Assembly: GCA_964016885.1 (NCBI GenBank)
Contig: OZ024740.1
Span: 316,324,001 to 316,388,000, forward strand
DNA length: 64,000 nt
Reading direction: 5' to 3'
Origin: Eledone cirrhosa
Lineage: Eukaryota
Shown piece by piece: positions 6,665-56,830 of this stretch; within the stretch, counting starts at the first letter, position 1, and every line of letters starts with the position of its first letter. The notes under the pieces are model-generated. The model ran no database searches and was not told where the DNA came from. It worked only from the letters and a program-made list of their open reading frames with translations. The translations under genes were made by a program, and so were the position numbers.

Positions 6665-6998
6665 CTATATATACATTCATATATATATAGCTATTTCAGA
6701 GCGCCAATTCTAATTTTCAATTTCTGCTTGACCGGCAACCGCTCTGTATAATCAGTTCCTGATTATTACTAGAAATTCTATAAGAATCAAACATTCATGA
6801 TTTTCAGCAAACAGGTGGGGTACTTGGCTTTGATAAGTACCAATCAGTACGAAACATGGCTCTGTCAGCTTTTTCTCCCCGTTTGCTGAAAATTTAAAGT
6901 AAGTGAGACTGTCACTACTCTAAAACAATAGCATAAGGTCTTCGAAATGCTTTTAATTAAGCATACAGTGTATTGCAAAATACACTATATATACATTC

Positions 6999-7010
<12 letters not shown>
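6665..7010 (+). mobile_element. Non-coding ~320-bp retrozyme-like element, family A, copy 1
   Basis: Direct terminal redundancy (ctatatatacattcat at 6665 and 6985); homologous to 44898-45295 and 49968-50190; contains an HHR; its left end (4851-4887) was split off by the RTE insertion. Confidence 0.8.
6826..6870 (+). ncRNA. Type I hammerhead ribozyme, U3-A8 core variant
   Basis: ggct-TTGATAA-gtac(caatca)gtac-GAAA-ca(tggctc)tg-TC-agct; stem I extends over 6800-6893. Confidence 0.85.
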
Positions 7011-7037
<27 letters not shown>

Positions 7038-9640
7038 CCCCACAGCCAGAAATAAATTTCAAAGCATATTACTTGATGCTTTCGATAGTAAGGAAGAGCA
7101 TCTAGAATCGGACAATATAGAGGGACAGTGGGAATTTCTGAAAGCAAACCTGCTGTTGGCGACAGACGAAGTCTGTGGCTGGAGCAGGCCTGTAGGCAGG
7201 AGGAGAGTAACATGGTGGTGGAACAGTAGGGTGGAGGGGTCAATTAAGGCCAAAAAGCAGGCTTGGAAAGTATGGAGGGATGGGGGAAGTAGAGTAGACT
7301 ATCAAGTGGCCAGGAGGGAAGCTAGGAGTGAAGTGTACTTAGCAAGAAGGGAAGCTGAGGAAAGAAAGTTCAAGCATGTTCTACAACGCGATGACCAAAA
7401 ACGTGAGGTGTTCAGGATTGCCAGGCAATGCGTCAAGGAAAACCGTGATATTGTCGGGGAGAAGTGTGTACTTAACGATGATGGCATACTTGCCATCACC
7501 GACACTGATAAGAAGGTAGCTTGGAAGTGTCACTATGAAAGGCTACTAAATGAGGAGAATAAATGGGAGAAAGACAGTCTCCCCCATATCGACCCGATAG
7601 AGGGACCAGCAGTGTTAGTCGAGGGGAGTATAATAAGTAAGGCAATCAAGGATATGAAGACTGGTAAGGCGGCTGGGCCTTCGGAAATAGTTGCTGAGAT
7701 GCTGAAGGCATCTGGCACGGTGGGACACACCATGGTCACCCGCATAGTTAACCAAGTCGTACAGAATGGGGTTGTTCCGAAGGACTGGCATAGCAGCATC
7801 ATCGTTAACTGTTATAAGGGTAAAGGAGACGCCCTAGATAGGAGTAACTATAGAGGCATAAAATTAATCGACCAGGTCATGAAGGTCACGGAAAAAGTAA
7901 TAGCGCAACTAATCAGAGAGAGAATTGATCTAGATGAAATGCAGTTCGGGTTTGTGTCAGGCAAAAGCACCACAGACGCTCTTTTCATAGTACGACAACT
8001 ACAGGAGAAGTACCTAGCTAAAGGTAAACCCCTCTACTTAGCTTTTGTCGACCTGGAGAAAGCCTTCGACAGAGTCCCCCGCTCCATTATCTGGTGGGCT
8101 CTTAGAAAACTAGGCGTTGACGAATGGCTTGTGAGGGCTATACAAGCCATGTATAAAGAAACAGTCAGCAAGGTTAGAATTAACAACGAATATAGTGAAG
8201 AGTTTAGCGTAAAAGTTGGCGTCCATCAGGGCTCTGTTCTCAGCCCCCTACTATTTATTATTGCCCTTCAGGCTATAACAGAGGATTTCAAGACAGGCTG
8301 CCCATGGGAACTCCTATACGCAGACGACCTGACACTCATAGCGGAATCAATGGCCGAGCTAGAGAAGAAATTCCAAACATGGAAGCACGGCCTAGAGTCA
8401 AAAGGACTTAAAATTAACCTGGCTAAGACCAAAGTTCTAGTTTGTAGGAAAGAAAACAAGGCGGCGGTCCCTTCTGGGAAATGGTCGTGCTCGGTATGTA
8501 GGAAAGGCGTAGGTAGAAACTCCATCTTATGTCCTAAATGCAAAGTATGGGTGCATAAAAGATGTAGTGGGATCACAGGTAAGCTAACTAAGAACATAGA
8601 CTTTACATGTGGCCGATGTTCTGGTGCAATAAGTAGCAGCAAGTGCCCACAAAATACTAGCTCTTTCAATTGCGCAGAGGGTTCTATAGAAATAGTGGAC
8701 GGCTTCCGTTACCTGGGCGATAAAATCAGCAGTGGGGGAGGGTGCTCTGAAAGTACTGTAGCTAGAGTCAGAACTGGTTGGAAAAAGTTCAGAGAGCTTA
8801 TACCACTATTAGCTGCTAAAGGGTTCTCCCTAAAAATGAAAGGCAGGTTGTACGATGCCTGCATACGAACAGCAATGTTGCATGGCAGTGAGACCTGGGC
8901 ATTGTGTGCAGAGGATATACGCAGACTAGAGAGGAACGAAGCTTGCATGCTCCGCTGGATGTGTAACAGTAATATACGTGAACGGCAAAGCATAAACGAA
9001 CTAAGGAAAAAATTAGAGATAAGAGGGATCAGATGTTGTTTACTCGAGAGAAGGCTGCGTTGGTATGGACACGTGATGCGCATGAAAGTCGATAGCTGTA
9101 TTACAAAGTGCAGGGCAATAAAGATAGACGGTAGCCACGGAATAGGCAGACCTAGAAAAACATGGGATGAGCTGATAAACTCCGACCTCACACACTTACA
9201 CCTCTCCAAGACAATGTCACTGGACCGTGACCTTTGGCGGTACTCAGTAACAGAGAAGACCCGCCTTGCCAGTAGGCATCTCTAACAAAATACACCCCGT
9301 CCCGCCACCACCCCCACCCCATCCACACCACCCCGTTCTATGTAAAGTTATGTTGGTGCCGCGCCATCCAGGCCGAAACAAATGAGATCGTGTAGGTGTC
9401 ACGACAAAAAAACACACAGTCCACGCTGTAATGTGGCCGTGTAGGCAACACGGTAAAAACCTCCCAGACCCACACTGTAAATGTGGTTGGTGTTAGGAAG
9501 GGCATCCAACTGTAGAAAACCTGCCAGACAGTCCTATGCGAGCAAGACAATCACTCTTGCCTCAAGTGGGACTACCCCCGTCCAAACCCATGCAAGCGTG
9601 GAACACGGACGTTAAACGTTGATGATGATGATGATGATGA
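7038..9640 (+). mobile_element. RTE-clade LINE, 5'-truncated, with uninterrupted ~750-aa RT region (to 9285)
   Basis: Full RT motif set (YKGKGD, NYRGI, QFGF, DLEKAFD, QGSVLSP, YADD, FRYLG); APE domain missing; (GAT)n tail. Confidence 0.96.
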
Positions 9641-10398
9641 TACATATACATATATACACATACATACACACACACAACCGAGTGTCTCTTCTGGAAAAGT
9701 TGTCACTATTCAAATGTGGTAATAAATTTACATGGAAAGAAGATTAAATTAATCAATGGCAGTTAATGTTTTGATTGGGGAAAAGTCTGTGTTATTTTTA
9801 AAATAATGCGTTAATTAAAATAATAAAAATTAACATAAGTTTCAAGCAGTTGTAAAAACTGTCAACATAAACTGTGGCATCTGTACTATTTGCAACTGTA
9901 TACATGGTCCTGTAACTCCTGATGGAGTTGTAGGGTGCCGTATTGACAGTGTTTTGGGGGCATTTTGAAACCTGGCAGAGCCCATCTCTCTCCAGTATTT
10001 GCAACTATACTAGGTTCCAAAAAAGTCAATGATTAATTTTGAAATAACATTTATTTACAAGGAAATTAATGGAGAGCAATTCAAAAGTTATGATACCCAA
10101 TTAAAAACTTAGATATCTAAATATATTCCTTTAAGCTGATATGACCACCAACTGCTTTCATATCTGTTCGAGGGCTGATATTATAGGACTCTTCAGAATA
10201 ACACAGGGCTATAAATTTATATGGGAAGTCTAAGTCTAGTCTAAAGTCTGTCTCAAGCCAGAAGTCTTGTTCGGCTGGTGCTTATCCTGGTTTCATGGCG
10301 TAAAGTGACTGAGAGAACAAGACTTTCCCCTGGATAGATACCATTGCAGAGTTAAACCCCCAGCTATTGCTGGTACATATTTTCAGCTGAGTATAAAC

Positions 10399-10988
10399 GA
10401 ATTGAGAGAGAGACTGAGCATAAGAGGAATCAAATACTGTGTGCAAGAGAGGAGGTTGTGTTGGTATGGACATGTGATGCGTACGAAGGATGACAGCTGC
10501 ATAAAAAGGTGCAGAGCACTAGAAATCAATGGAAGCCGCAGAGTGGGGAGACCCAAGAAGACCTGGGATGAGGTGATAAAAGCCGACCTTACCCAAATGC
10601 ACATCTCAAAGGCGATGACACACGACCACGATCTGACATCATGCAGTAATACAGAAGATCCGACTTCCCATGGGTACAAGCCGAAGCATATAGACAATAT
10701 GCCCCCACCCCCTCCTACTGCAAAGTGGTCGTGGAGGTGCCATGTCAAAAAAGCAACCAGCCCACACTGTAAAGTGGACGTGTCGGCGCCACGGAGAAAA
10801 AGCACCCACCACTCACTGTAAATGAGGTTAGTGCTAGGAAGGGCATCCAGCTGTAGAAATCAAGCCAAAATCAGTTCCTGTATGAGCAAGACAAGGTCAG
10901 CCGACCAGACACTGCCCACAACAGGACAACCCGTCTAACCCATGTTAGTGTGGAAGAACGGACGTAAAACGGTGATGATGATGATGAT
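10399..10988 (+). mobile_element. RTE 3' fragment, same family as 4888-6664
   Basis: RRLCWYGHVMR and GRPKKTW; 3' UTR and (GAT)n tail match the minus-strand copy. Confidence 0.92.
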
Positions 10989-19804: not shown

Positions 19805-22800
19805 AGAATTCACAAGAATCAAAGCTATGTTCAAAGCATTTATTCACTTACAATTATTTCATCCAAACCTCAATAGAGTGAGATGGAGGACATTCCATTA
19901 TGATAAAAACAAATCAAACAAAATTGATAATACTAACAAATTCGACTCCTTCGGCTTTAAAACTTTTAGAAGCCCCCCTCACAACACACTACTAAACTCC
20001 TTTGAAAATGACCTAATAAAACTAGTTAAGAACATTAAATACAAAAAGCATCGTAATAGAAACACCTTCTTAAACAAACTTAACTCCTCTATTAAGGGAT
20101 TCAAAACAAGTAGTAAAATTATTGTGCATGCGGACAAAACTAATAACATATACAGCCTAGATTATGATACATATAGAAAGTTTATATATGGTGAACTACA
20201 TAAGAGCTACAAGAAAACTACTATGAAAAACCTAGAAGATATTAATATAGAAGGCTGTAATATAGTGTCCAAACTAGGACTTCAGAGACATACACAACCA
20301 TACACCCCAAACCCCCCTAGATTCTCTCTGAAGGACCGTAAGGAGGATTTCATTAGTAACCCCTCGATTAGACTAATCTGCCCTTCCAAGTCTGACATTG
20401 GCATTATCAGTAAGACAATTTTAGATAAAATCATCCCACAGATTAAACACAAAATATACCTTAAACAATGGGGAAATACGGGTGAAGTTATTGAATGGTT
20501 TAAGGATATCAAGGAAAACAAAAATAAAAAATCTATTCAATTTGATATCAATTCATACTACACCTCTATTTCCCCTATCCTATTAAATAAGGCACTAATT
20601 ATGGCCATGAACAATAGTGACCTGACTAGACCCCAGATTGATGTCATACTTGCGGCCCGTAAAACCGTAATCACTTTTGAAGACCAGTTATGGACCCGCA
20701 AGGATACGCATAGCAACTTCGACATAACCATGGGATCTAGTGACTCGGCGCAGGTCACTGATTTTTGGGCCTATACTTACTAAACGAAATCCATAAGGAC
20801 CTTCCATACCTCAACGGTGGATTGTGCCGCGATGATGCACCTCTCCTTGTAGGCTATAAAAAATTTAATATAGAAAGAACTAGAAAACTATTGCACAAGA
20901 CTTTCAAAAACTATAACCTAAGTATATCACCATAGACAAAAACACTAAAAACGTTAACTTCCTAGAAGCCACCCTTTACCTAGACTCTAAGATATATACA
21001 CCATTCCATAAACCTAACGAAAAACTGATTTACGCAGATACCAAGTCTAACCACCCTAGATCAATATTAAGCTCTATCTCTAAAGGAATATTCAATAGAA
21101 TCTCTAATCTATCTTATGACGAAACCATATTTAGCAAAAACTCACAATACTATAATCAGGCATTAGCTAGATCAGGCCATAATAATGAGATCGAGTTCCT
21201 ACCTATAAAAACACATAGTTACAACATTATTTCGCACAATATGTCCATGAGGAAAAATAGTAATAAGAATAATAACCACACACACACTAGTACGAAGGGT
21301 GGCAACAAACGTAACCCACACCAGGGAGGACACCAAAATACCATAAACGGAAGCATCTCACCAGACATAAAAAACAAAAATAGAAGAAGAAATAATACAT
21401 TTTTCAACCCCCCTTTCAATCTAAACGTCTCTACCAACCTACCTAAAGCTTTCTTCTCACTCCTAGATAAAAACTTCCCATCTGGCCACAAGTACCATAG
21501 TCTTATAAATAAAAACACCATTAAAATCTCCTACTCTACCACGCCTAACATAGCATACCACATAGCTAGTAGCAATAAAAGAAAAATTAATACTTACTTC
21601 CAACAAACTAAAACACAGCAGGGGGTAAACCTTCAAAACAGCGTAATACCTGCAAACCCTAATATCAATAGTAATAATAGTAATAGCACTAGTGAAAGCA
21701 ATAACGCTAGGAGCGACTACCCCCATAGCCATAATGCAATACCTAGCAACCAGACTTCTACACAACATAATAACCGGCAAGTTAACATCCAAAATAATTG
21801 TAACTGTAGATCTAATAGAACCTGCCCTTTAGATAAAAACTGCTTAATCAAGGACATCATATACTCATGCACCGTCAGAACTAGCAACTCTTCTGAAACC
21901 TATATAGGCTCTACTTCGAACTGCTTCAAAACCAGATACAATTCACACCTCCATTCTTTCAAAAAACACAGTCTAGCTACATACACTATCTAAAAACTAG
22001 AAATAGATCTTATACACTTCAATGGGAAGTGATAGGTAAGGCGGCATCGTACAAACCACCTAATAAATTCTGTAACCTCTGTCTACTAGAGACCCATACT
22101 ATAATCTTCTCAAACCATAACCTCCTTAATAAAAAATCGGAAGAGTTTGCGTCGTGCCAGCACCGCTTCCGGCACTCCTTCCAAAACTTTAAACCCAATA
22201 TATAACAATGTCGGACTTGAACCCATCACCACTTCTAACACCACACCTCAAGGGCACACCTTACACCACAACTCCACACTCTCTGATCCACCCTATCTTG
22301 ACACAAATCATTCCATCTATCTATAACTTTATACCCTAGAAATATCCCCATAAACACCTACTTTTAATATAACTACTTTCAATTACTTATAATTATATAA
22401 TGATACAATACAGTCTATATAAACTTTAAATACTGGATACGGAAATGAATTATTTATGCATTTGTAATTAAATGTATGGAGTGATAACATTGGATATATA
22501 TAAGATTAATTTATTAACATAAGAGATCTGTCTAACTTATATGTAGGGTGCTGCAATGAATTATATATGAATTATATATGCAAGTATAACTTGATGGATA
22601 TATTAATGACATTGTAAATGAGGGATGTATTTGTCTGCCCTAGAGATGTATTTTGTTTTGCCATGCAAACAGCCATACGCTGCTCCATAACTTGCCAGGG
22701 GTTATGTAGACAAAATTCTAATAGGTCCCCTGATATGTTCTGAGAGTAGACTGCATTTACAGTGAACTTTGATATATAGGTATGGCACTTTGTATGGAAT

Positions 22801-23753
22801 ATTCAATTGTAGCACTATATAATAGGGAGTAATCAACTTAATATAGATACCTTTAGTACATCATGACTGTATTTAAAATTGGAAACTAGATGTAAATGTA
22901 TAACCGTCTATATAAGAGACTCAATTGAGGCGCCTTATAATGTATGTTAGAACAATGAATTTAGTTATGAGATTCGGCTAGTTACCTCCCCTTACGCATT
23001 AATTCCCCTTAATTACACACATACTTCCGGGTAATAAACCGCTGTAAATTCTCGCAGCAGAATCAACCTATTCTATAAGCTTGGATTAAATAACACTGAG
23101 CCTCAATACGCTAAAATAATTTATTTTAATGCATCAAACATTCAATACGGAATCATCGTTACTTATGTGATGGATGTAGAAACTATATCTTACTTTTTCT
23201 GAATGTGAAAATGGTGGTGGATACGAAAACCATAACTTTCCTTTGCTTCTTCTTTTTATTTCTCTGCACACATACTTTTTTGTTCTATACAAAAAATACC
23301 TTACCACTACAACCACCATAATAATCTTGCTTACCCGCTTAAAGTGCTTGCATTACGTGTAACACCCTGCCACACAATAATAGTATAAAAATGAGACACA
23401 CTTGCATGCTCCATGTGTAACTAACGCATACACTACCTACTAGATCTGACTATCAAACTATCCTCTTGCATTATCTGTGTTATCTGCCGAATGTATTTTA
23501 ATTTTGATTTTGATTTTGATTTTTAATTTGAATTGCTGTACAAAAATAGTATAGTATAATATATGTCACTCCACTTTACATCAATATATATATATATATA
23601 TATATATGTATCTGTATGTCTCTTGCGTTGGAAAGGAGGTCAATTATATGTACAAACATTGAAAAATGCCCCGAAGACTCCAAGCCTAGGTTTGGATGAA
23701 ACAATTGTAAGTGAATAAATGCTTTGAACATAGCTTTTAATCTTGTGAATTCT
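19805..23753 (+). mobile_element. Penelope-like element PLE-1 (YRDD type, C-terminal GIY-YIG), 5'-truncated and frameshifted, with inverted 5' tail
   Basis: DKTNN, QFDINSYY, MGSSDSAQV, GGLCRDD, CNCx5CPL, IIY..YIG; 66-bp inverted repeat 19805-19870 / 23688-23753. Confidence 0.92.
23667..23713 (+). ncRNA. Minimal type I HHR with CCGAAGA core in the PLE-1 3' end
   Basis: CCGAAGA-c-tccaagc(ctag)gtttgga-t-GAAA-caattg-TA followed by AATAAA; stem I is weak. Confidence 0.6.
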
Positions 23754-31131: not shown

Positions 31132-31186
31132 TAACAGATTAAAGTTTAAGCAAAGAATCGCTGCTTTCACCCTTAAGGGGATCTTC

Positions 31187-34100
31187 TGAAACTAAAAAGG
31201 TCATTCTGTGAACGCAGAAGTAAATATTTCAAAAAAGGTTGCAACCGAAAGAAGACAGGAAGAGGATACTTTGGTTCGTGGAAACGTTCCCTGGCAAAGA
31301 TCGAAAAAAACGAAGATAATACATCATTATTAGGTGCGGTGAAAACAATTACGCGCAAAGACAAAACCACGTTTATGGTATAAATGAAGTCGTAGACTAA
31401 TATTCTATTAAGTGGTTCATGGAGACGTTCTCAGGCACCTATAATAACCCTCCGAGCAACCCAGCATTGCTACCCTCCGAAAATGATGTCTTGGAACTCA
31501 TACGGAGTATCAAATTTCGGAATAGGAGCAATTCCTTCCAGCAGGACCTGAAGAATAGAATTCGTTCTATTAAGGATTCTAATGCCGTGCACCTCCACTC
31601 CGACAAAACTGGCAATCTATATCAAGTGGAGCGCAGTACTTACCATCAACTGCTACATAATGCTGTAATTAAGGATTACTGTAAAACTAAGCGGAACGTC
31701 ATTAATAAAATCAACGATGCTGGATTTAAAATCACCTCTGATCTCAACATCCTGGACCGGACTGAACCTCGGGACCCTATTTCTCCCCACTTTACCCTGA
31801 AGGATCACAAATCCAATTTCCCGAACAACCCCTCTATTCGGCTTATTAACCCTACGAAGTCAGATTTAGGTAGACTTAGTAAAAGGATTTTAGATAGAAT
31901 TATACCTGAAATTAGAAGTTTGGCCCCTGTTGCACTGTGGAACAATTCTTTCGCGGTGATTGATTGGTTCAACGGCATATGCAACAAGGAACATTGCCGT
32001 TTTATCCAATTCGACATCAATAATTACTACTCCTCCATCGCTTTACCACTTCTTGTTAGAGTTATCAATTTCGCTAAAACACTCACAGTGGTTAATTATC
32101 TCTAAGTTGATGTCATCCTCAATGCCCGTAAGTCGGTGATTAATTTCGACGACTCTATTTGGATTAAAAAATCTAATAGTACCCCATTCGACGTGTGTAT
32201 GGGCGCCAGCGATTCTGCGGAGGTTACTGATCTTATCGGCCTTTTCCTTCTTTTCTCTATCAAGGAAGAATTCCCCAACGCGGGTGGTGGTTTGTACCGT
32301 GATGACGGTCTTTTGACCATGACAAAGTGCGGCCCACATGCTTGCGACAGGTTCAGAAAAGAACTCACAGCCTTCTTTAAAGGCTTCAACCTCTCCATAC
32401 AGGTTGAGGCCAACCTCTCGGTCGTTAATTACCTCGACGTTACCCTCAATTTGTCGAATGGCTTGCACTACCCGTATAGAAAGCCGAATGATACGCTTAA
32501 TTATATAAGTAAGCATTCTAACCATCCTGCCAGCATAACCAAGAACCTGGTAAGAAACGTTTCTTTGAGGCTTTCCCGTCTATCTACAAACGAGCATATT
32601 TTCAACGATCATTCCACATATTACAATGAAGCTCTTACTCGGAGTGGATTTGTCGATAAGGTAGCATATACAGAATAGACCAAGGAAAAATAGATCCCGA
32701 CGCATTATATGGTATAACCCACCATATAATATGGAGGTGGCCACACCATTAGCTAAGATCTTTCTCTCCCTTGTTATGAAGCATTTCCCCCCAGCACAAA
32801 AATATAGTAAAATTTTTAATAGAAATACCATTAAAATTTCTTACTCTACGACTCCTAACCTTGCACATAACATCACAGCTTCAAATTTAGCTAAATTGCG
32901 TAGCCGTAAGAACACGTGCAACCCTGTAGCTAGTACTAACTGTAATTGTAGGAATCGGGTTGACTACCCCCTATCCGGGAAATGCCTCTCTAGTAACATT
33001 GTTTACAAATGTAAGGTTAAAACACCCACGCCCCGTAGAGCCTACATAGGGTTAACCGCCACTAGATTCAAGCAGCGTCTTTACATGCATACCCATTCTT
33101 TTCTTAACCCTTTAAGAAGGAATATGACGTCACTTTCAGCTTACATCTGGAGTCTAAAGGACAACCACACCCAATATAAGTTACACTGGAAGATCCTAGG
33201 TAAGGCTAGATCGTATAACGGAAATAAAAGACCATGTGACCTCTATGCCGCTGAGGCCCTGGAAATACTCTACGCCAAAGACCACATCTTAAACAAAAAA
33301 TCTGAGGCAATTTCGGCTTGTAAACATAAATTGCACAAAACTTTCCTGTATTATAGCCCCACGTTATACCCTAACGGATAGTACGAACTATACGTGGATA
33401 TTTTACGTCTTGATGTGGTAGCTAAGTATATGTTATGTTTATACCATTACTTATTTGTATAGGTAAGTATATATTACCTGTATGTTTTGTGAAGGTACGT
33501 ATACTTTCTCGTACGTATATTTGCTTGTTTATGTTATGGCGTATATTATATATACTGGTACATGTGCATATGGTTATGTGAGTTTGCGTCTGTGTGAGTA
33601 TGCGGGTTCGTTCGTATGTAGGGTGTGTGTATATGTGTACTTTGTGTTTTGGTTGACGTACGTCTGCGAACATATGTGTATTTACATGTAGGTGTGTGTG
33701 TGCGCGCGTTATATACGTATTTATGTGTGTATATTTATATACGTTTACTTACTTATGTGTATACACGCACACACACGCACATATATGTATATATATAATT
33801 TTATATTTTTTGTGTATTTGGTGTATACGTTCGTATGTGTGCGGGTACGGGCGTTGCGTGGGTTCTGTACGTGCGTGAGTGTTTTTTTGTGTACGTGCCT
33901 GTATTTGCATACCCATGGCGAGTGTTTTCGCGTATGCTTGTGTATGTACGTATTTGGATACGTGTATGTATATATTTAATTTCAATTACCTCTGTATTTT
34001 ATTTACTTTATTCTTAACTCTGAAGCCGAGAATCACTCGGTTTCCTATATAGAATTTTAGTCTACGACTTCAGTTATACCATTTACGGGGTTTGTCTTTC

Positions 34101-34243
34101 CGTGTAATTGTTCACACCGATCCACATAATGACGTTATGGGAACATTTCCACGAACCAAAGTATCATCTTCCTGTCTTCCTTCGGTTGCAACCTTTTTTG
34201 AAATATTTACTTCTGCGTTCACAGATTGACTTTTTTAGTTTCA
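31187..34243 (+). mobile_element. Penelope-like element PLE-2 (YRDD RT + GIY-YIG), 5'-truncated, with stops, inverted 5' tail
   Basis: ORFs 31419-33381: SDKTGN, QFDINNYY, MGASDSAEV, GGLYRDD, CNCx5(Y)PL, IVY..YIG; 31187-31437 is an inverted copy of the 3' end. Confidence 0.92.
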
Positions 34244-34249
34244 AAATAT

Positions 34250-34975
34250 GAATATTTCAAAAAACGTTGCAACCGAAGGAAGACAGGAAGACGATACTTT
34301 GGTTCGTGGAAACGTTCCCTGGCAAAGAAACGGGAAAAACCGAATATAATACGTCATTATTTGGACCGGTGAAAAAAAATGATACGCAAAGACAAAACCA
34401 CGTTTATGGTATAAAAGAAGTCGTGCACTAATATTCTATTAGGTGGTTCATAGAGACGTTCTCAGGCAATGAACGGAAAAAACGAAGATAATACGTCATA
34501 TATGAAGCGGAGAGAAGAATTGCACGCAAAGACAAAACCACGTAAATGGTATAACTGAAGTCGTAGACTAAAATTCTAACTCCGAAACCGAATGATTCTC
34601 GGCTTCAGAGTTAAGAATAAAGTAAGTAAAATACAGAGGTAATTGAGATAAATAAATACATACACGCATATGTGTGTGCGCTTGTTATATACGTATTTAT
34701 TTATTTATATACGTTTATTTAATTATATGTATACACGCACATACACACAAACACACACACGCACATATATATATATATATATATTTTTTTTTTATGTGTA
34801 TTTGGTGTATACATTCGTATGCGTGCGGGTACATGCGTTGCGTGGGTTCTGTATGCGCGTACGAGTTTTTTTCTTCTGTGTACGTGCGTGTCTTTGTATA
34901 GCTATGGCGAGTTTTTTGCGTATGCTTGTGTATGTACGTATATGGATGCGTGTATGTATTTATTTATCTCAATAA
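34250..34975. mobile_element. Second, inverted-plus-direct copy of the PLE-2 3' UTR
   Basis: 34250-34670 is an inverted copy of the PLE-2 3' end; ~34670-34975 is a direct copy of ~33690-33990. Confidence 0.75.
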
Positions 34976-38031: not shown

Positions 38032-38487
38032 ATATTGTTATACTTGGGGAGGGTCATATTTGTGTAATATTGCCAGAATTAATAACAGAACACACTCACT
38101 GTTTGGTTGGTTTTCGCTTCTCGCTTCTGTGTCTTTTATATCGGTAATCTAATATACTCGGTCCTCAATGTTGCCATTGACTGACCGGCGGTCAAAAATA
38201 ATACAGATACAATATAGACACAAACACATATATATAGTTTATCATAAATCTTTCGTTGCACATCTGCAACATCGTCAGTGGTGCTATATTTTCCTCTCGC
38301 TGCATTGTATGTCTACGCCATTTTTATTCAGTCTGTCTATATATTTATTTATTTATTTGCTTGTTTGTTTATTTTATTTTGTCTTCTTTGCGCATGCGTT
38401 TGCGTGTGTGTATAGTGTTTTGTTTGCTGTGTGATGGGTGACTAGTGTGTGTTTATGTGCTTGCCGTTATTGTGCTTGTGTATGTAT

Positions 38488-44631: not shown

Positions 44632-44688
<57 letters not shown>

Positions 44689-44818
44689 ATATATATGTAT
44701 ATATAATGTATTTTGCAATACACTTTATGCTTAATTAAAAGCATTTTGAAGACCGTATGCTATTGTTTTAGAGTAGTGACAAATTCACTTACTTTAATCT
44801 CACCAAACAGGGGAGATA

Positions 44819-44864
44819 AGCCGACAAGGGCCTTGTTTCGCTTTTGTTGAAGCTTATCAAGGCT
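44819..44864 (-). ncRNA. Type I HHR, U3-A8 core
   Basis: Reverse complement of 45089-45134. Confidence 0.85.
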
Positions 44865-45088
44865 AACTACCCCTCCTGTCTACTGAGATTACTGATGTAA
44901 TTAAGCATAAAGTGTATTGCAAAATACATTATATATACATCCATATATATATTGCTATTTCAGAGCTTCAATTCTAATTTTTAATTTCTGCCTGACCAAC
45001 AATCGCTCTGTATAATCAGCTCCTGATTATTTACTAGAATTCTATAAGAATATAACATCAGTAATCTCAGTAGACAGGAGGGGTAGTT

Positions 45089-45134
45089 AGCCTTGATAAG
45101 CTTCAACAAAAGCGAAACAAGGCCCTTGTCGGCT
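45089..45134 (+). ncRNA. Type I HHR, U3-A8 core
   Basis: agcc-TTGATAA-gctt(caacaa)aagc-GAAA-caag(gcc)cttg-TC-ggct; extended stem I 45062-45158. Confidence 0.88.
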
Positions 45135-45289
45135 TATCTCCCCTGTTTGCTGAGATTAAAGTAAGTGAATTTGTCACTACTCTAAAACAATAGCATACGG
45201 TCTTCAAAATGCTTTTAATTAAGAATAAAGTGTATTGCAAAATACATTATATATACATCCATATATATATTGCTATTTCAGAGCTCCAA

Positions 45290-45377
<88 letters not shown>

Positions 45378-45523
45378 ATCAAAATACTTGAGTGTGTTAG
45401 AGTTAATCACACTCGTCGTATTAGAGAAATGATAGTATAAGATATAGCTCAATGTAATCCAACAGAGCCGAAAAATTATAAAAATAAACAAAGAAGCCTT
45501 CAATACATCAAAAGTCTTTATTA

Positions 45524-45564
45524 GCCGACAATGTTTCGTCCCATTAATAAGGACTCATCAGGGC
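45524..45564 (-). ncRNA. Canonical minimal type I HHR of PLE-4
   Basis: gcc-CTGATGA-gtcc(ttattaatg)ggac-GAAA-cattg-TC-ggc followed by AATAAA. Confidence 0.92.
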
Positions 45565-47021
45565 AAGCAAAGAGACAAGAAGCATTAACGGCCAAAACAA
45601 GCCAAAACTCAGAAGAACAGGGAATTTATATCTATGAAAACTTAGGAAGGACATCATGGAAAGACATGCTAAAGTTAAAAGTGAGCATTTGCAAATATAG
45701 ACTATAGGGCAAGAGAGCAAGTAATATGTCAAACCCACGTTGAAAGAACAATATAAGACAAATACATGAAACACAACATGGTAATACAATATGAGAATTA
45801 TAATATGATATAGAATACAATATAATGGATAATAAGAAATAAAAAGCTTTATATATATGTATATATATATATCCATATATATACACATTTACACAAACAC
45901 ATACTAACACTTGTTTAAATATTTAAATATAATAATCATTATAATAGCATAATCACCCTGACGGTGTGCATAAACAATATCAAAAACAATGAAATAATAT
46001 ACTGACATAAAAAATATATAAAACTACATCATACGTATCATTTAAGGTCAACAAATTGTATATAAAGTTTTTCACAAGGTAAGAAAAAATATCATATAAA
46101 AATAAAGTATGGTGAAAGAATATATATAACTATATATAATATTGACAATAAATATCCAGAGGTATATGCAGTTCAAATTCATAAAATATTACAAAACAGT
46201 ACCTCAATAACGGACATGTATATATAATTCAATACCATAAAAATAATAATGTTAATATTACAATAGCAGACAGACAGAATCAATGGAAAATGCTTAAGAC
46301 ATATTTACGCGATGCATACAAATAGACATATCAGGAGACAATAACAAATGATAGGAGAACAGACAGCATGTGGTAGTAAAAATAAATAAATAAATAAATA
46401 AAACGAAGAACAAAAACAAAAACAAGCACAGACGTTACAAGTCCCTAGGTAAATATAGATAATATTACTATTCTGGATCAAAGAATTAAATTGAAAACCT
46501 TATTAAATTAATTAGTACTAAAACTATTTAAAAGACATTATGGGTCACTTCATATGGAATAAAGTTTAAATCATCAAAGACGAATAAAATTAAGATATTT
46601 CAATAAGAAAGCTAAAATATCTATAAAGATTTATTACGATACATCCAGACTAATTACGATATCAAGGAAAAAACTCTAAATAAAACTATGGTAGACCAAT
46701 GGGAACATAAAGAAGTAGAACTATGGAGGGTAGGAAGGAGCATAAAGGTAAAAATTTATATATAATCAATATAAATTGACCATATATAAATTTATATATA
46801 ATATTAAATATAATATTATTTTCATCCCAACCAGGGATGAAAATAAAGATAGAAACTTATAAGGCGACAATGGTGAATAAAAATGTAATAAAGGTAAAGA
46901 TGATAGAAAGAGTAGGATAGCTAAAGAGACTATGAAAACTAAAACTAAATTGAAAAACCGTAGAAAAACAATAATGGTAATAATAATGAACTAAAACCAA
47001 AGAGATAAGGAAATATAGCAG

Positions 47022-49601
47022 CTAATGGATACGGTTTAAACTACCGGAGCTTTTAGGTCTATAATAGAAGAAGGAATTAGAAATAGCATGCGGACAGGAA
47101 GAAAAAATTTCAGATTTTCTATTAAGTAATACGTTCCTAGAGAAAATTATAGAGTGGGTCTCTAGGATACAAAGATTACAGAATTTAGCGTGTGTTGAGA
47201 GGTGATTAGAGTGTGCTACTATACGCCAATTTAGGTTATATGGTATACCAGCCCCTTTTAAATCCCAGATATGGTGTGCTAAAGAAGTAGAGTTCTTAAA
47301 CTTGATATGCTTAAAATTAGAAATATGTGAATTAAACCTAGTTTTAAAAGTATTAGATGTGGAGCCTATATATGTTCTACAAGAAGAATTAGTCTTAACT
47401 TCACATGCATAAACAATATTCCTAGAGAGGCAGTGGCCATTCAAAGGGCAGTTATTACTTAATCTACAGTTACACTTCCGGGTATTAGTGATTAGCTGAT
47501 TACGCGATGCATTATTCCTAGGGTTATTAGAAGATAAGATCTGCTCGGGTGGTAAGTTGTTGATAGAGCTATCTAGATTAGTAGTACGCAAAGAGCAGTA
47601 GCTGTCCCTAATTTTCCTATTATTAGTGCTAGCTAGATGAGAATTAATATTAGGGGTGGTAGAGAAGGAGAGTTTAATTACATTCTTATTAAAGATACTA
47701 TGGTATTTATTAGTAGGAGGGAAATTTTTCTCTAAAATAGAAAAGAAAGATCTAGGGATATTAGTTAATACTTCATGATTATAAAGCGGGTTAAAGTAAG
47801 TATTGAGCCTCCTCCTATTCTTACCTTTACTATTTCTATTTCTATCTCGTATCGTATTAATAGGATTAGGGTTAATACTAGGACCAGTTGAATCAACATT
47901 ATTAGAAGCCGTTAAAACATCACCACTGGGTGAACGTTCAGAGCGCCTATCCTGTTCACTAGAACTAATCTCAAAAAGTGCACCATTAGACTCACTATTA
48001 CGATTATTATTGTGGTAGTTATACATATGGTTCGGTTTGGATGAACCAATAACATTTCTATGATTCCTAGATTTTCTTCTCCCATTCAAGGCCATGTTAT
48101 GGGATATTACGTTATTATTGGTAAACGGAGTCATTCCAAGGTAGTTATCTTTATAGTGTATTCTACCTGAGTAACCAGAGTTAGCTAGGGCATTATTATA
48201 ATACTCAGCATGTGAATTAAATATTCCTATATCTTTAGAGAGTGTGGAGATTCTATTAGATACACCATTAATAATAGAACTAATCATAGATTTAGGGTGG
48301 TTAGAATTAGGATTAACGTAAGAGAGTGTCTCATTAGGCTTGTGGAAGGGTTTATAATTATTAGTGACCAAGTCCAATGTCACATCTAAAAAGTTAACAG
48401 CTCTATCATTCCTATCAATCGTGATCGAAAGGTTAAAATTTTAAAAACATTTATACAACTTCTTCCTATTATGTTCAATGCTATTAGTACTAGAGTTTAT
48501 TACAAATAATGCATCGTCACGATAAAGTCCACCTTTAAGGTGCGGAAAGCTAACATAAAGTTCGTTCAAGAGGTACAGCCCAACAAGATCAGTTACCTGC
48601 GCAGAATCACTTGAACCCATGGTCACGTCAAAGTTGTTGGGTGTGTTTTTACGCGTCCAAAGTGTATCCTCAAATTTGAAGATAGTCTTACGGGCGGCTA
48701 GTATAACATCAATCTGGGGACGCGTAAGACGAGACATTCGCATGGCCATAATTAGGGCTTTATTAAGGAGGATAGGTGAAATCGACGTGTAATAGGCGTC
48801 TATATCAAACTGGATAAACCTACTAGACTTAAGCTTATTTATACCAGAGAACCAATCAATAACATCCATAGTGTTCCCCCATAGATTAAAATGAACCTTT
48901 TCTCTAACGGTGGGTATAATCAGGTCAAGAATTTTCTTACTAATTATAGCTATATCAGACTTAGAAGGACTGATAAGTCTAACAGTAGGATTACTTAAGA
49001 AGTCCACCTTATGATCCTTAAGTGTGAATCTCGGTTCCCTAGGGTAATAAGGTTGGGTATACTTATCAAGACCCAGATCCGAAACTATCTTGAGGACCTC
49101 ATTATTAATTTGATCTAAATTATCCTGCGTTGTCTTTTTGTAATTTTTATGCAACTCCTTATTAATAAAATTACGGTAGGCAATGTAATCCATAGAGTAA
49201 AGATTCTTAGTCTTGTCAGCCGGGACAAGAATAGACCTATTCCCTTTAAAATCCCTAACAATATTCTTAAGTTTAGACTGGAACTTGTCAAATTTATTAT
49301 AGTTCCCATATTTATTATGCGGCTTATATTTAATATTTTTGACAAGGGAAAGTAAATCGTTCTCAAAACTATCTAATAGAACATTATGCGGTGGACTTTT
49401 ATAAGTCTTGAAGCCAAAGTTATTGAATGGAGTCTTACTACTGGGGTTATTCCTATTCCTATTACTATCAAAGTGGAAAGCACGGCATCTAATCCGTTTT
49501 ACGAATGAGTTAACGCTAGCAATCAAGAGTTTTTCATAAGTATTTCTAGAAGGGATGGGAATATTCTTCAGAGATAAAGGCAAGTAGCTCTTTGTTAGCA
49601 T
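47022..49601 (-). pseudogene. PLE-4 RT/GIY-YIG ORF (~859 codons) with one in-frame TAA at 48441-48443
   Basis: ORFs 48441..49601 and 47022..48383 are in the same frame with an open 19-codon gap (NFNLSITID..VNFLD); SLKNIP, ADKT, FDI, YRDD, CNCx5CPL, IVY..YIG. Confidence 0.92.
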
Positions 49602-50212: not shown

Positions 50213-51845
50213 CAAGGACACCAAAGCAAATTATATATATACGAATATAAATTATCGAGAATCGTATTTCGGCCCACGAAATAACGAAAAACAACCTCCG
50301 AGATGTGTGGTAAGTGCTCAATGATTCAGATGAACCAGAGCTATAACAAACGTTAAAGGCCAAACACACTGAGACGATGGTTAAACAATCATCCGCATAG
50401 CCAAAAAAACGATCAAGTAATTCGGGTCAAACAAATAAAAATATATATGATTGAAAATTTACCCGGACCCCTGGAAGGTTGGTAAAATCCAGCATTTGGG
50501 TTTCTGCGACTCCTAAATCAAGTACTGTCCGCTTACATAAATAACGAAAAACAAACTCCGAGATGTTTACAGACTTCTCTTTCTGATTTACTTTCATTTT
50601 AAACTTTATTTTTAATTTTATTTTTATTTTTACTTCACATCCACCAATAACCCCCCCCCCCCCCCTCTACTTTTCGATTCACTTACCTAATATCTTCACA
50701 TTCCACATTTCACTTCCCCATTTGCTTTCACGACCTGATAACCTTTGTCACTTGCGTTTTCCACTCCAGATATACTCTGTTGTTTCGCAGCCGATTTTAT
50801 ATTTGTAGTCATTTATTCATACGGCTGGTTTATAATCTGTATCTATGTGTGTGAGTGGCTTATGTGTGTATATGTTTTGTATATGTATACGAACGCCTCC
50901 GTATGTGTGCGTGTGTACGTATATATATGTGTGTGTATGTGTGTTTTTATATCTATGTTTTTTTTATAAATATGTTTTTTACATACTTATTTATACGTGT
51001 GTGTATGCGGGTGAATGTATGTGTATGTGTATGTATATGTGTGTATATGTATATGTATGTATGGGTGTGTATGTATATATGTATATATATATATATATAT
51101 AGTCGCGTACGTACGTGTGATTAGATATACATGTGGCGATATATATATATACGTGCCTCGTGTGTACGTATGTACGCATGCATGCGCTTTTGTCTGTACG
51201 TATTTGTGTGTATAAATATTTTTTTATAGATATATGTGTATGTACGTGCGTACCTATGTTTGTTTTCTTTTCTCTAGTAATAATTGATTACTTTCTCTTT
51301 GATTTAAAACATTTTTTCATTCTCATATATTGTTTAATTTTTATACATATATCGAGAATGACACTTCTTTTCACTATTACACTCCCTTCCCTCTTTATCT
51401 CCCGCATATAAGTGACCGCTCGCGTGTGTGTGTTTATACGCGTGCTTTCATACTCGTATATGTATTTAATACCTGTATCTGGATGCGTGTTATCTTACAA
51501 TTTCTTTTTCAACTCATATTATCTTACAATTTCTTTTTCAACTCATATTATCTTACAATTTCTTTTTCAACTCATATTATATACGTATTTGTGGTCACAT
51601 ATACACAAATATACTTGCCCTCATATATGTACTTACGCACACATTTTCACCATACACATGCATTTGTACATACACACATATGTACATTTGTGAGTGTATA
51701 TACATACATATACACATACCCTAACTATATTTCCTTATTTTTTTATATATCTCTTGCATTACTTTTATTTATATATTTTTTGCCCGTTAAACTCTTGCAT
51801 TTCTTGAGGAGACTTTCCAAATATTTCACTATGTTTTAAATTGCC

Positions 51846-51917
51846 TTGTCCGACGAACGAATGAGGACGTTTTTCGTATTCGTCTTATTCGGGAAACCTC
51901 TGGTAATGAGGTAATTA
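51846..51917 (+). ncRNA. HHR-like motif with CCGACGA core at the end of a TG-rich orphan pLTR-like segment (~50600-51945)
   Basis: CCGACGA-a-cgaatgaggacg..cgtcttattcg-g-GAAA-cctc(tggtaat)gagg-TA; stem I is weak. Confidence 0.6.
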
Positions 51918-52499: not shown

Positions 52500-54720
52500 A
52501 TCAAGACTATACCGCCGCGCACCATCCTGTATTGCGTCCAGTCTTCTCAAGCGATCATCGAGCCTCCATGCGCTCTCTTCATTCCCGTGATCCCACTACC
52601 GTAGCATAATGAGGCATCCGTCAACCCCTGCCCTCTCCCTTCTCTGCACACCGTTGACCCACTGCATCGTTGTGCATCACCATGCGCATCTCTGCCTTGT
52701 CAGCCGCAATTCATTCCTCGGCCCTTTCCATTGCCTGCCCTCTGTGGTCCCTAAGGACTGCCACGGCTGAACATGCCGAATCCCTGCCACCGTCCACCCC
52801 TGCCCATTTCCATTGACTACACTCCGGGATAGCTCAAGACTTCCATGCCTGACCAAGCCGCATCCCTGCCACCGTCAACCCCTGCCCCCTCCGTTCCCTG
52901 TACGCCGTCGTCCCACTGCATCGTCATGCCTCACCATGCCGCATTACTGCCCCGTCGGCCACCATCCCCTCCACAGCCCTTTCTTTTTCCTGCCCGCCGT
53001 GCTCCTTCAAGACTGCCAAATCTAACCAAGCCGCATCCCTGCCACCATCAAGTCCTGCCCTCTCCCTTCCCTGCACGCCGTCGTCCCACTGCATCGTCAT
53101 GCCTCACCATGCCCTGTCAGCCGCGATGCCCTCTCCTTCCCTCTCCCTTACCCGCACGCCTTGATCCTTCACGAATGCTATGGCTCACTATGCGGAATCC
53201 CTGCAACCGTCAATCCCGGCCATTTCCCTTCCCTGCACGCCGTCGACCCACTGCATCGTTATGCCTCACCATACCGCATCCATGATCTGTCAGCCGCCAT
53301 CCCCTCCTCAGTCTTTTATTTTGCCTGCCTGCCGTGCTCCTTCAAGACTGCCATGCCTAACAAAGCCGCATCCCTGCCACCGTCAACCCCTGCCCTCTCC
53401 CTTGCCCGCACGCCTTGGTCTCTCACCACTGCCATGGCTCACCATGCGGCATTCCTGCCCTGTTAGCAACTTGCTCAAATGTCATCAGCATGGTTTATTC
53501 CTGCGCCGCACATAACCGCCCATTACCTCAGACCAAAGACAACACCGAACATGAAGACGATCCTGTGTAAGTCTTTTTACATTCATTTTGACCATATTTA
53601 ACAAAATTAAACAAAAATTCATCCCTTCTCCTCCAAAGCCTACCGATCATGTATGGCCGATAAACATCCTGCCTTGCACCCGGTTTTCTCAAACAATCAT
53701 CGTGCCTTCCGGTGCTCTCTACATTTCCAAGGTGCAACTCAATTGGCATGCCGCATCCACGCCCTGTCAGCCGCCATGCACCCTGCTCTTTCGTCATGCC
53801 TCATCATGTTGCATCCCTGCCCTGTCAGCCGCCATCCACTCCCCGACCCTTTCCACTGCCTAGGCATGGCAGTCTTAAGGGACCAAGTCGCATCCCTGCC
53901 ACCGTCAACCCCTGCCCTCTCCGTTCCCTGCACACAGTCGTCCCACTGCATCGTCATGCATCACCATGCTGCATCAATGCTCTGTCAGCCGCCATCTCCT
54001 CCTCGGCCCTTTCTTTTGCCTGCCCGCAGTGCTCATTCAAGACTACCATGGCTCACCATGCAGCATCCTTGCCACCGTCCACTCCTGCCCTCTTCCTTGC
54101 CTGCTGGCCGTCGTCCCACTGCATCGTCATGCCTCATCCATGCACTGTCAGCCACCATCCCCTCCTCGGCCCTTTCTTTTTCCTGACCGATTTGCTCCTT
54201 CAAGACTCCCATGGCTATCTATGCCGCATCAATTCCTTGCCATCCGCTTAAACGTCATCAGCATGGCACATTGTTGCCCCATTTGACCACCGATTTTCGC
54301 AGGCTAAACACAATACCAACGTGCACGATAGTCCATGGTAAATATTTTTAATTACATGTTCATCATGCTAAGCAAAGGATGAATAGCAACTCTTTCATTT
54401 CTCCTGACATGCCTTTCTGTCAATTATGGCCGAGAAGCATCTTGTGTAGCATCCCGTCTTCTCAAGCGATCAGCGTGCCTTCCACTGTCCTCACAATTGA
54501 CTCACAACGCCGCATCTATTCCCTGCGACGCTCCTAAACATCATCAGCATGGCTTATTTTTCTGCCGCGTTTAACCGACCCTCATTCTAGTCCATAAACA
54601 ACAAAACCGCACGATGATGCTGCGTAGGTCTATTTAAATTAATGGTCAACATGTTCAGCAAAACAATTGTACCAATTCTTCCTCTTCACCTCCAAAGCCT
54701 ATCCATTACATCTTAGAGGT
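52500..54720. repeat. Degenerate C-rich tandem array (~175-bp unit, with higher-order blocks)
   Basis: Recurring gcatccctgccaccgtcaacccctgccctctcc and cccactgcatcgtcatgcctcacc. Confidence 0.8.
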
Positions 54721-55279
54721 CGGGATTCGCAATTTCTACGATTTCAATATTGACACAACAGTCCGTCAGGTTTTTCGGCACATGTTGCTCCGATAGGAAT
54801 CTCAACGTGATTTTCACTTAATTCGTAAGTGTTCAGTCTTCCGTATGCTTTTATTTTTTTATTGATACAACATCGACTACAATCATCTAACTTCACTTTG
54901 TAGGCTAGACGCGAATCACAAGAAAAACAATCCTCTGATATACCCCCCCCCCCCTCATTCTTTGGTCTACCTAGATTTCAATTGCTATATCCTTTGCTTT
55001 TGTACGGCTGTACATTTGACAATGTCGCAAAACATTATTCCACTTGATTCTTACCTTTCAGCTATGAATTGGGCAGTGCCTTAAAATCCCGGTTTATTTG
55101 CGTGCAATTTTTTGGAATCTTATGAATGGAGAATCGAAAACAATTGTTACAATTGTTTCGCCGGCGGACAGCTCGAGACGCGATCATTGTGTGGTTCTGT
55201 CTGATTCTGGACCGGCGGGTTCGACGGACACCTCTAATGATTTCGGAGCATATTCTTCCACTGGGGTATCTGACCCTGT

Positions 55280-55790
55280 GGGCCAGTACTGGCAATAACA
55301 AAACCCATAGGAATAACAAATATAGAACTAAACAGAGAAATAGACAACGACCGCCAGAAATAACCGAACCGAACACTAATATAGGGACCCTCAGGAACTA
55401 CAGAAAATCCAGAGATAGGAAATACTTATGGTTCAATCCAATATTCAACTCCTCTTCAAAAACCAACCTACCCTCTACACTCCCCATTCGGTTCAGTTAT
55501 TTTTGGTACTCGTTGTCTATTTCTGCGTTTAGTTCTATATTTGTTATTCCTATGGGTTATTGTTTCGATTCTCCGATGTATCTATAAATACCAATGCCAT
55601 GTGTTAAACCCTCCAGTGTTCCGATGATTTGATCAGACACACACACTGTATTTAAGGTCGAGTGACACAACTTCGAGTGATTAACGGCCTTTAGACTCAC
55701 CTGATCAATGAAACAATTGTTAATACTATAAATAAAACCCTTTTTGTACAGCCAATCATGTTATTCTTCACTCTTTCACTATTATTATTC
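55280..55790 (+). mobile_element. PLE remnant: linker-coding fragment, ~80-bp inverted repeat and HHR-bearing 3' end
   Basis: RKYLWFNPIFNSSSKTNLP resembles the PLE linker FFNPPFNLNVSTNLP; ~55295-55372 is an inverted copy of ~55487-55564. Confidence 0.6.
55615..55727 (+). ncRNA. Type I HHR with CCGATGA core and ~65-nt stem II insertion
   Basis: agtgtt-CCGATGA-t-ttgatcag..ctgatcaa-t-GAAA-caattg-TT-aatact, then AATAAA. Confidence 0.78.
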
Positions 55791-56169
55791 CAAGAATAAC
55801 CTGCATGGGAATTCTCACGAACTCGCTACCTAACTATGGAAACCTCTTGTTGAGTCAAACAACGCCGTACATTAAAACTATCCACGATACAGAGTACTCA
55901 CAACCTCTAACTGGATTACCTAAAACGATAACTTGTTTTCCCATATATATATACACACATATTAGTAGCATGAGAATGTTTCTATGTGGAAGACAACATT
56001 ATATGGACATTTTATCTGGTCTTTCATTGATTTGGAGTATTTTCAGGAGTTTGATAAATTGAAGGACATTAGAGTGGAAAGTTGTCATGGAGTGGTAATT
56101 ATTTATATGAAGGATTGCATCTAATGTTTAGAGTAGTCTTAGAAGATATGTTTATTTATTTAAGATAAC

Positions 56170-56830
56170 TTTAGACTTAGTGGTTAATCATGGTTCCTGC
56201 TTATGTGTGATCTTGATTGCAAGCTGTTCAAATACCGGCTACTTTCTGATAGGTTTGTTGTTGAATATATAGCAGCAGAAACTTCTGGCATTCTGGGTCT
56301 CCAAACCACCGCCCTACTCACTGCCATCTGGATCACCCACAAGAATAAGCCTTGAGAGTTAAAATGGCTCTTTTCAGCGTGTCTCCCTCGATATCCTCAG
56401 GTGTAACACTTTCGGTATTCCACCTGCTGGAACCATGTTATTGAGCTGCCTCTAGTCAATATCCCCTCAGTTCGGGAGCCAGCTGAATTGTCCAGGTTTG
56501 ATGGGAAGATGTGGACGTTTCATTTGGGAGGCCACAGTTAGTGACGCTTTTGCTCCCCCATACCTTGGATACTGTGGCAAAGGTAAAGTCCACAACATCA
56601 TTTGTCTAGTGGAATGAATAATATACCAGAAAATACTGTCCAACTATTCTTTTCAGCATATGGCGTTCGAGTCATTTGGGGGAGCTAGGGTGCTGACAAC
56701 GAGTTTCTTGTGATTGTTGGCGATTCGCTTTACCAACATATCAGATGATACTCGCACCTTAGCTTCCTTATTACCCGTAGTAATTCTGCAAATGTGTTGA
56801 CTTGTTTCAAAAATTATTAGAAGGAAAGTC
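56170..56830 (+). pseudogene. Degenerate CRE-like C-terminal (restriction-like endonuclease) relic
   Basis: SRFDGK..WEATVSDAFAPPYL-like reading; homologous to 62040-62865. Confidence 0.45.

Follow-up and report, generated by a model that had tools for sequence, protein, structure and literature searches.

A hammerhead-shaped motif with C at core position 4 in a high-copy, likely Hydra-clade Penelope repeat of Eledone cirrhosa

Introduction

Penelope-like elements carry hammerhead motifs with a dimer architecture (accessible sections of PMC4209133 and PMC6765202), and the same sections of PMC4209133 describe their cleavage in vitro as weak. In the Hydra clade (Craig et al. 2021, PMC8557442), the open reading frames (ORFs) contain RWK and DKT motifs and the elements target (TA)n. 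File S2 of that study, in its available part, holds 25 Hydra-clade families that all read CUGA, 14 of them with U·U and one with U·C at positions 10.1·11.1; the descriptor required CUGANGA, yet it matched 25 of 27 families.

Departures from the hammerhead core consensus are known from other systems. According to the accessible text of PMC3088659, U4C is a natural, infectious viroid variant whose activity is lowered in vitro, and U10.1-U11.1 is a natural variant too, U·U being the best-tolerated mismatch at 10.1·11.1. A selection in MS2 yielded no inactivating U4 mutants among 50 plaques (PMC4075628), and a pairwise scan, so far as PMC9901934 is available, found single mutants of the CUGA turn to be low in activity, with rescue only by a swap of C3-G8. 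A CYGANGA descriptor is already in use (PMC13481778, accessible part).

Here we analyse a 64,000-nt stretch of the Eledone cirrhosa genome (the window; all coordinates are positions within it), in which an earlier sequence-only reading had picked out a hammerhead whose core box starts at 55621 and reads CCGAUGA.

Results

A type I hammerhead layout at 55615-55736

The motif lies on the forward strand and has the type I layout, with three helices around the core and the ends in stem I, stem III being expected only as a dimer. Stem I pairs 55615-55620 with 55722-55727 over 6 bp, including one G·U, at 55618. The core box C3 C4 G5 A6 U7 G8 A9 (CCGAUGA, 55621-55627) has C4 in place of the consensus U4 at 55622. 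Stem II (55628-55709) begins with U55628·U55709 at 10.1·11.1 and continues with 8 bp (55629-55636/55701-55708, predicted pair probabilities 0.69-0.97) and a 64-nt loop with a 7-bp inner helix (55654-55660/55685-55691, predicted pair probabilities 0.54-1.0). After the 82 nt between the core boxes come G12 A13 A14 (GAAA from 55710), the stem III palindrome ACAATTGT (55713-55720) and H17, which is U55721 and makes a GUU site with a predicted cut after 55721; together these occupy 55710-55721. An AATAAA at 55731-55736 resembles a poly(A) signal, its putative function, and the same hexamer stands 3' of the window motifs 23671 and 45561 and of three outside elements (L163, L169, L183), for which the search pattern required it.

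All of C3 G5 A6 G8 A9 G12 A13 A14 A15.1 U16.1 H17 are in place, and the departures from the strict hammerhead consensus are at U4 (C55622) and at the paired 10.1-11.1 (U55628·U55709). Because U4C is a published active natural variant, C55622 excludes the motif from the strict consensus only. The anatomy described in the sequence-only reading (6-bp stem I, CCGAUGA, U·U with an 8-bp stem II, inner helix, palindromic stem III, GUU and AATAAA) was found in full, except that its 65-nt stem II insert counts 64 nt between the 8-bp arms; its description of the motif as the best-formed is debatable, as the C4 motif at 51850 outscores it (23 versus 18).

The score of 18 comes from a descriptor scan of the window in which position 4 was left free. 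As a chance control, a score of 18 or more was reached in 1 of 100 block-shuffled 64-kb windows, and a stem I of at least 6 together with a stem II of at least 8 was seen in 0 of 40 shuffles. By its whole-fold energy the motif does not stand out (z -0.75), and CCGANGA as a bare heptamer occurs at chance level (12 seen, 10 expected). No hammerhead model of Rfam matched at the motif at E<=1 or E<=10, for which the long stem II insert may be the reason, and Pfam returned nothing useful on the Penelope ORFs of the window except a weak RVT_1 match on the 39-40 kb element. The hammerhead-shaped motif at 55621 is real. Elsewhere in the window, the 5' region of the 31.2-kb element recurs at 33958-34669 as nested inverted repeats, whose long hairpins account for spurious Rfam matches to MIR2606 and MIR530.

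Predicted folding of the monomer

Folding predictions give the monomer stem III hairpin a probability of 0.01, while the palindrome is predicted to form a self-duplex of 8 bp at -6.4 kcal/mol; the 55621 motif shares with dimer-type Penelope hammerheads a palindromic stem III that is unstable as a monomer. The predicted minimum, in which C4-U7 are paired to the stem III strand with a probability of 0.65-0.70, lies 4.1 kcal/mol below the monomer hammerhead fold. On the idea that C4 locks the monomer through this pairing the two motifs disagree, the predicted opening cost dropping with C4 at 55621 and climbing with C4 at 51850. With U at 55622, a hairpin with the stem II arm is predicted that destroys stems I and II (-25.0 versus -22.1 kcal/mol). 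The folding models hint that C4 may be settled in the 55621 sequence. The U4 revertant suggested earlier as a control is confounded: placed in the exact 55621 sequence, U4 is predicted to fold wrongly with the native stem II arm, which would make a simple revertant a poor control.

A high-copy repeat unit next to a Penelope ORF fragment

We aligned contigs and the reads of four of the seven listed runs to 54900-56300 (X1 and X2 are one sample). Read depth delimits a high-copy terminal repeat unit at about 55560-55953 (+) that holds the hammerhead and ends in (TA)n, with a depth of 3,600-214,000 compared to 7-8 in the unique flank. At 55618 the depth is 9,675 and 11,434 against flanks of 7.9 and 6.7, a ratio of about 1,200-1,700-fold that is not a copy number, with several-fold greater depth over the motif's 3' half and close to the unit end. 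Loose read ends at 55953 continue into TATATA, and the repeat, whose end is about 220 nt away from the hammerhead, directly adjoins (TA)n, an insertion context that the unit shares with the Hydra clade. Read-end pile-ups of run X5 at 55151, 55715-55718 and 55810-55813 were considered as cleavage and rejected, being AATT sites of a reduced-representation DNA library.

At 55297-55479 (+) we found a fragment of a Hydra-type Penelope ORF (…KYLWFNPIFNSSSKTNL…) that covers the WFNP region only and matches L169/L183 at 64% over 22 aa. Part of it recurs as an inverted 90% copy at 55487-55564; inverted truncated pieces of this kind are described for Penelope-like elements in the accessible text of PMC8557442. 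Loose read ends behind 55479 carry the frame on as F-F-K-L-I-D-K-H-F-P (translated by eye). No intact ORF joined to the unit was found, and within the 64-kb window there is neither a second copy of the unit nor the array of tandem units, each with a hammerhead, that marks non-LTR retrozymes. The 55621 unit is presumably part of an intact Hydra-type element, and the high-copy repeat that carries it is likely a Penelope-type element of the Hydra clade.

A second high-copy unit, at 55145-55256 (-) and with a depth of 25,000-98,000, is inserted in the Penelope ORF piece. It contains GAAACAATTGTA, a 4-bp stem I candidate, a CCGUCGA-like box and 4 extra bases before a GC-rich stem, and may be a degenerate hammerhead relative.

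Other hammerheads in the window

The descriptor scan of the window returned 11 matches at score 9 or more; the one at 58078, AT-rich and likely due to chance, was left out of account. The second C4 hammerhead (23671-23717, +, score 13) has C·U at 10.1·11.1, the same ACAATTGT, a 7-bp stem II and a broken stem I base, and its score was reached by 23 matches in 100 shuffled windows. The Hydra-type element at 19.8-22.2 kb has its stop 1,466 nt before this motif, whose 3' half is repeated inverted at 19805-19870, where the ORF of that element starts. The third C4 hammerhead (51840-51915, +, score 23) has A·G at 10.1·11.1 and a stem I of 10-11 bp; (TA)n comes after the motif, and a link to an ORF was not found. 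Both further C4 sites named by the sequence-only reading are there. A fourth motif, at 31143-31193 (-), which the sequence-only reading did not note, has A4 (CAGAAGA), U·U and a 5-bp stem III and is situated, inverted, at the 5' end of the Hydra-type 31.2-33.4 kb element; its partial second copy near 34230-34249 also reads CA. Outside position 4, all four non-U4 motifs have an intact core, with the catalytic G8 and G12 in place.

Three families keep U4, each with G10.1-C11.1. The motif at 45523-45564 (-) is at the 3' end of the Hydra-type 47.0-49.6 kb element, 1,461 nt past its stop, and this element is the sister of the C4-bearing 19.8-kb element. The motif at 38278 (-), with a bulged U, is at the 3' end of the Penelope-like 38.7-41.6 kb element. 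The U3-A8 (UUGAUAA) family has a variable stem III and four copies (6830, 44860 (-), 45093 and 50015), including those in a 98% inverted pair, 44686-44901 and 45052-45267. The motifs at 23671, 31188, 45561 and 38278 rest on context because their scores, 11-13, are within reach of shuffles.

The 19.8-, 31.2- and 47-kb elements carry DKT, the 19.8-kb element also RWR, and the combination of an RWK-like motif with DKT that typifies Hydra-clade ORFs is found in the 19.8- and 47-kb neighbours. The three elements form one clade against five outside elements (100/99); the placement of L234, which has a long branch and three stops, was not used. The C4 sites had been described as lying in apparently unrelated elements, a claim that is not supported: the 23671 motif is part of a Hydra-type Penelope element, a Hydra-like ORF piece stands next to 55621, and ACAATTGT is common to both motifs and to outside Hydra-type elements, so that the motifs may not be independent.

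The spacing from stop to hammerhead is about 1.46 kb in the window (22205-23671 and 45561-47022) and 139-327 nt in four outside elements. The window as a whole consists of animal DNA in which (TA)n, LINEs and Penelope-like elements abound. Several reverse-transcriptase ORFs of the LINE type that include a cysteine-rich finger are located at 2-885, 5186-6460, 6961-9285 and 10309-10627, one of them an open frame of 774 aa, and the ORF regions at 5.2-6.5 kb and 8.0-9.3 kb are inverted relatives. A 164-nt SINE-like repeat, which presumably resembles a cephalopod SINE, has five copies (24636, 30417, 35059, 56908 and 62911), and at 52600-54300 a degenerate tandem repeat, C-rich and open in several frames, has units of about 81 and 173 nt.

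C4 is probably not private to the 55621 copy

The variant table holds the best 40 of 408 variable positions, apparently the sites with another letter at about 90% of the depth or more (an inferred rule). Near the motif it includes A55607C, G55618A (about 99% of family depth), C55638G, A55684G and A55728G. With G55618A the stem I G·U becomes an A-U pair, and with A55728G the stem gains a seventh pair, C55614-G, so that the letters of the family majority improve stem I over the 55621 copy. Position 55622 is absent from the best 40 of the 408 differences, and by that rule C would make up at least roughly one in ten of the family's letters at this site. C4 is probably not private to the 55621 copy, because a private change would read about 99% U, as G55618A does for its own letter, and be listed.

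We consider it very improbable that C4 is ordinary decay, either of the 55621 copy or of a small sub-lineage in a U4 family. Over 396 nt, 11 positions (about 3%) are listed at which the copy does not have the letter of the family majority. Against decay, however, stand the missing entry for 55622, the alteration of four motifs at the same core position 4, and the prediction that U4 in this sequence would zip onto the stem II arm. Independent decay that strikes one core position in three of four motifs has a probability of at most 7e-4, for motifs that are not demonstrably independent. That C4 is unlikely as decay had already been argued from the sequence, and this conclusion is supported by the absence of 55622 from the best 40 of 408 differences and by the figure for repeated change at one position; the accompanying CpG argument is weak, the observed/expected ratio of CpG being 0.73 in the window and 0.99 in the 55621 unit.

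Position 4 and the 10.1·11.1 mismatch

In the window, 10.1·11.1 is unpaired in all four non-U4 families, namely 55621 (C4, U·U), 23671 (C4, C·U), 51850 (C4, A·G) and 31188(-) (A4, U·U), and is G10.1-C11.1 in the three U4 families, 45561(-), 38278(-) and U3-A8 (4/4 versus 0/3 families, Fisher p=0.029 with relatedness ignored). Furthermore, the sister elements differ at both sites, with C4 and C·U at 19.8 kb and U4 and G-C at 47 kb, and this pair is the best point in favour of coupling. The perfect association within the window fits coupling as well as drift.

Outside the window the two features come apart. A metagenome pattern that allowed C4 or U4 gave 108 stretches (82 U4 and 26 C4 raw matches), of which four, L163, L169, L183 and L184 (three families), lie behind a Hydra-type Penelope ORF; all four are U4 with the same ACAATTGT. 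L169/L184 and L183 have U·U and L163 has A-U, while L233 and L234, found by protein alone, are U4 with U·U, and U4 with a 10.1·11.1 mismatch is consequently seen in four of five outside families (L169/L184, L183, L233 and L234). The one C4 candidate from the metagenomes, L143, sits within coding sequence of bacterial appearance and was discarded as a likely chance match. Among the matches listed for viral contigs, 7 of 122 have the complete type I fold with C4 and G10.1-C11.1 (L244, L252, L300, L305, L328, L343 and L354), and none of 120 combines C4 with U·U. In these contigs the loose stem III pattern gave 120 mostly chance rows and the strict pattern 4 rows, without a Penelope ORF, and no relatives of the window's Penelope ORFs were found there. 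U4 is kept in only one of four ORF-linked or ORF-adjacent window motifs (one of five with 51850) and elsewhere in 5/5 outside families found here and 25/25 published families, for which the published search demanded CUGANGA.

These counts bear on the proposal that C4 with an unpaired 10.1·11.1 is a coupled core subtype, one change compensating or permitting the other, which we regard as quite improbable. It would explain the association of the four non-U4 families with unpaired, and the three U4 families with paired, 10.1·11.1, as well as the double difference between the sister elements at 19.8 and 47 kb. However, U4 with a mismatch is the commonest state in the Hydra clade (15/25 in the available part of PMC8557442, besides the outside families above), viral contigs among the matches listed combine C4 with G-C and not with U·U, the three C4 mismatches all differ (U·U, C·U and A·G), and the folding cost of C4 versus U4 moves in opposite directions at 55621 and 51850. 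The core subtype suggested earlier is supported only in part: its association holds within the window, but both U4 with a mismatch and C4 with G-C occur outside it, and the fourth mismatch motif of the window, 31188(-), has A4 instead of C4.

The contigs of L233 and L234 are labelled as prokaryotic and carry eukaryotic-type Penelope ORFs and hammerheads, likely host DNA; L234 has at least four hammerheads within 1.3 kb. L128 (-) is a well-formed U4 hammerhead with the same ACAATTGT on a contig of 52% GC, with no Penelope ORF match.

A proposed slow, dimer-dependent ribozyme and the rival of a retained fold

In our judgement 55621 is moderately likely to be a C4 type I hammerhead of a Hydra-clade Penelope element, with slow, dimer-only cleavage after U55721 and a drifted position 4. 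By folding models and by analogy, two copies would pair through the ACAAUUGU palindrome and slowly self-cleave after U55721. A single copy is predicted to be unable to close stem III, and cleavage would then be confined to tandem or multi-copy transcripts; we infer slow, dimer-dependent cleavage because stem III fails as a monomer and a dimer architecture is published for Penelope hammerheads. Such cleavage may help to define the RNA end of the element. The unpaired 10.1·11.1 would be an inheritance from the Hydra clade, and C4 a tolerated, rate-lowering substitution that is now common in some families of the Eledone cirrhosa genome. Position 4 would be relaxed (C, C, C, A), and C4 would not be a partner change that compensates the mismatch. 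Counting against this explanation are the features that weaken 55621: C4, the U·U, the GUU site and the lack of a visible loop contact.

The main rival is that the fold is kept while catalysis is lost or dispensable, the motif giving the reverse transcriptase a structural signal for the 3' end or for dimerisation, or being a hitch-hiker, with position 4 free to drift; we think this somewhat unlikely. Two non-U letters, C and A, at position 4 within one clade are what it would lead one to expect. We know of no hammerhead in which A4 is a tolerated core letter, and A4 hints at a loss of function in some families. Furthermore, the high-copy unit at 55145-55256 has the same GAAACAATTGTA with a CCGUCGA-like box, Naiad elements proliferate without canonical hammerheads (accessible text of PMC8557442), and Penelope hammerheads cleave poorly even as dimers (accessible text of PMC4209133). 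On the other hand, the rest of the core, with the catalytic G8 and G12, is intact in all four non-U4 motifs, and U4C is the best-tolerated core change in print so far as PMC3088659 and PMC4075628 are available.

A bolder reading, which we hold to be improbable, is that the Hydra-type core has been remodelled, an unpaired 10.1·11.1 and an 8-bp intermolecular palindrome making the U-turn uridine dispensable; thousands of active dimer-only ribozymes per genome would then have been missed by all CUGANGA searches.

Discussion

Taken together, these results describe 55621 as a modest variant of the hammerhead and not a new subtype, because its two odd features are each already known and are separate elsewhere. 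Both deviations, U4C and U10.1·U11.1, are known singly in print, and the chemistry is not new. What is likely new is a lineage-specific relaxation of position 4 in the Hydra-type families of one genome. Lünse et al. (2017) reportedly list about 150,000 Penelope hammerhead variants. In the texts and supplements covered by our literature search, hammerheads of animal retroelements with C4 or A4 are not described; Lünse et al. 2017 could list C4.

If C4 is the norm of the family and cleaves, counts of animal hammerheads obtained with CUGANGA descriptors are too low, and one retroelement clade of a single genome would offer natural U4, C4 and A4 versions, a set that would directly test if Penelope elements depend on hammerhead catalysis or on the fold alone. 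Should the motif fail to cleave, a dead-core family at roughly a thousand-fold flank depth would argue that catalysis is dispensable.

Among known systems, the Hydra-clade hammerheads in the accessible text of Craig et al. 2021 (PMC8557442) resemble 55621 in being type I and 3'-terminal with a short near-palindromic stem III, in having U·U in 14/25, GUH sites including GUU, and in (TA)n insertion. They differ in having CUGA in 25/25 and stem II loops of 3-10 nt, whereas 55621 has C4 and 64 nt, and ACAATTGT with GAA is absent from the available part of the supplement. The min-HHR (Cervera and De la Peña 2014, PMC4209133, accessible sections) is similar in its palindromic stem III, which implies dimer cleavage, and its long helix II; it is characterised by a bulged base following A9 and by conservation of G10.1-C11.1, where 55621 has a symmetric U·U and C4. 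Its consensus is found in the window at 38278(-) and not at 55621. The same sections describe thousands of solo copies of metazoan Penelope hammerheads and the U3-A8 core variant, which is also present in the window.

The non-LTR retrozymes (bioRxiv 10.64898/2026.07.22.740005, accessible part) are, like the 55621 repeat, non-coding and Penelope-related with a type I hammerhead, but they are defined by tandem units, and 55621 is without a tandem copy in the window. The C4 type I hammerheads of viral contigs have CCGAUGA and complete stems as 55621 does, but with G10.1-C11.1 and a long stable stem III (monomeric). The peach latent mosaic viroid U4C and natural U10.1-U11.1 hammerheads (Perreault et al. 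2011, PMC3088659, accessible text) show the same deviations, each of them active. These are single deviations in monomeric ribozymes of viroids and microbes, whereas 55621 combines both in what is likely a high-copy animal retroelement.
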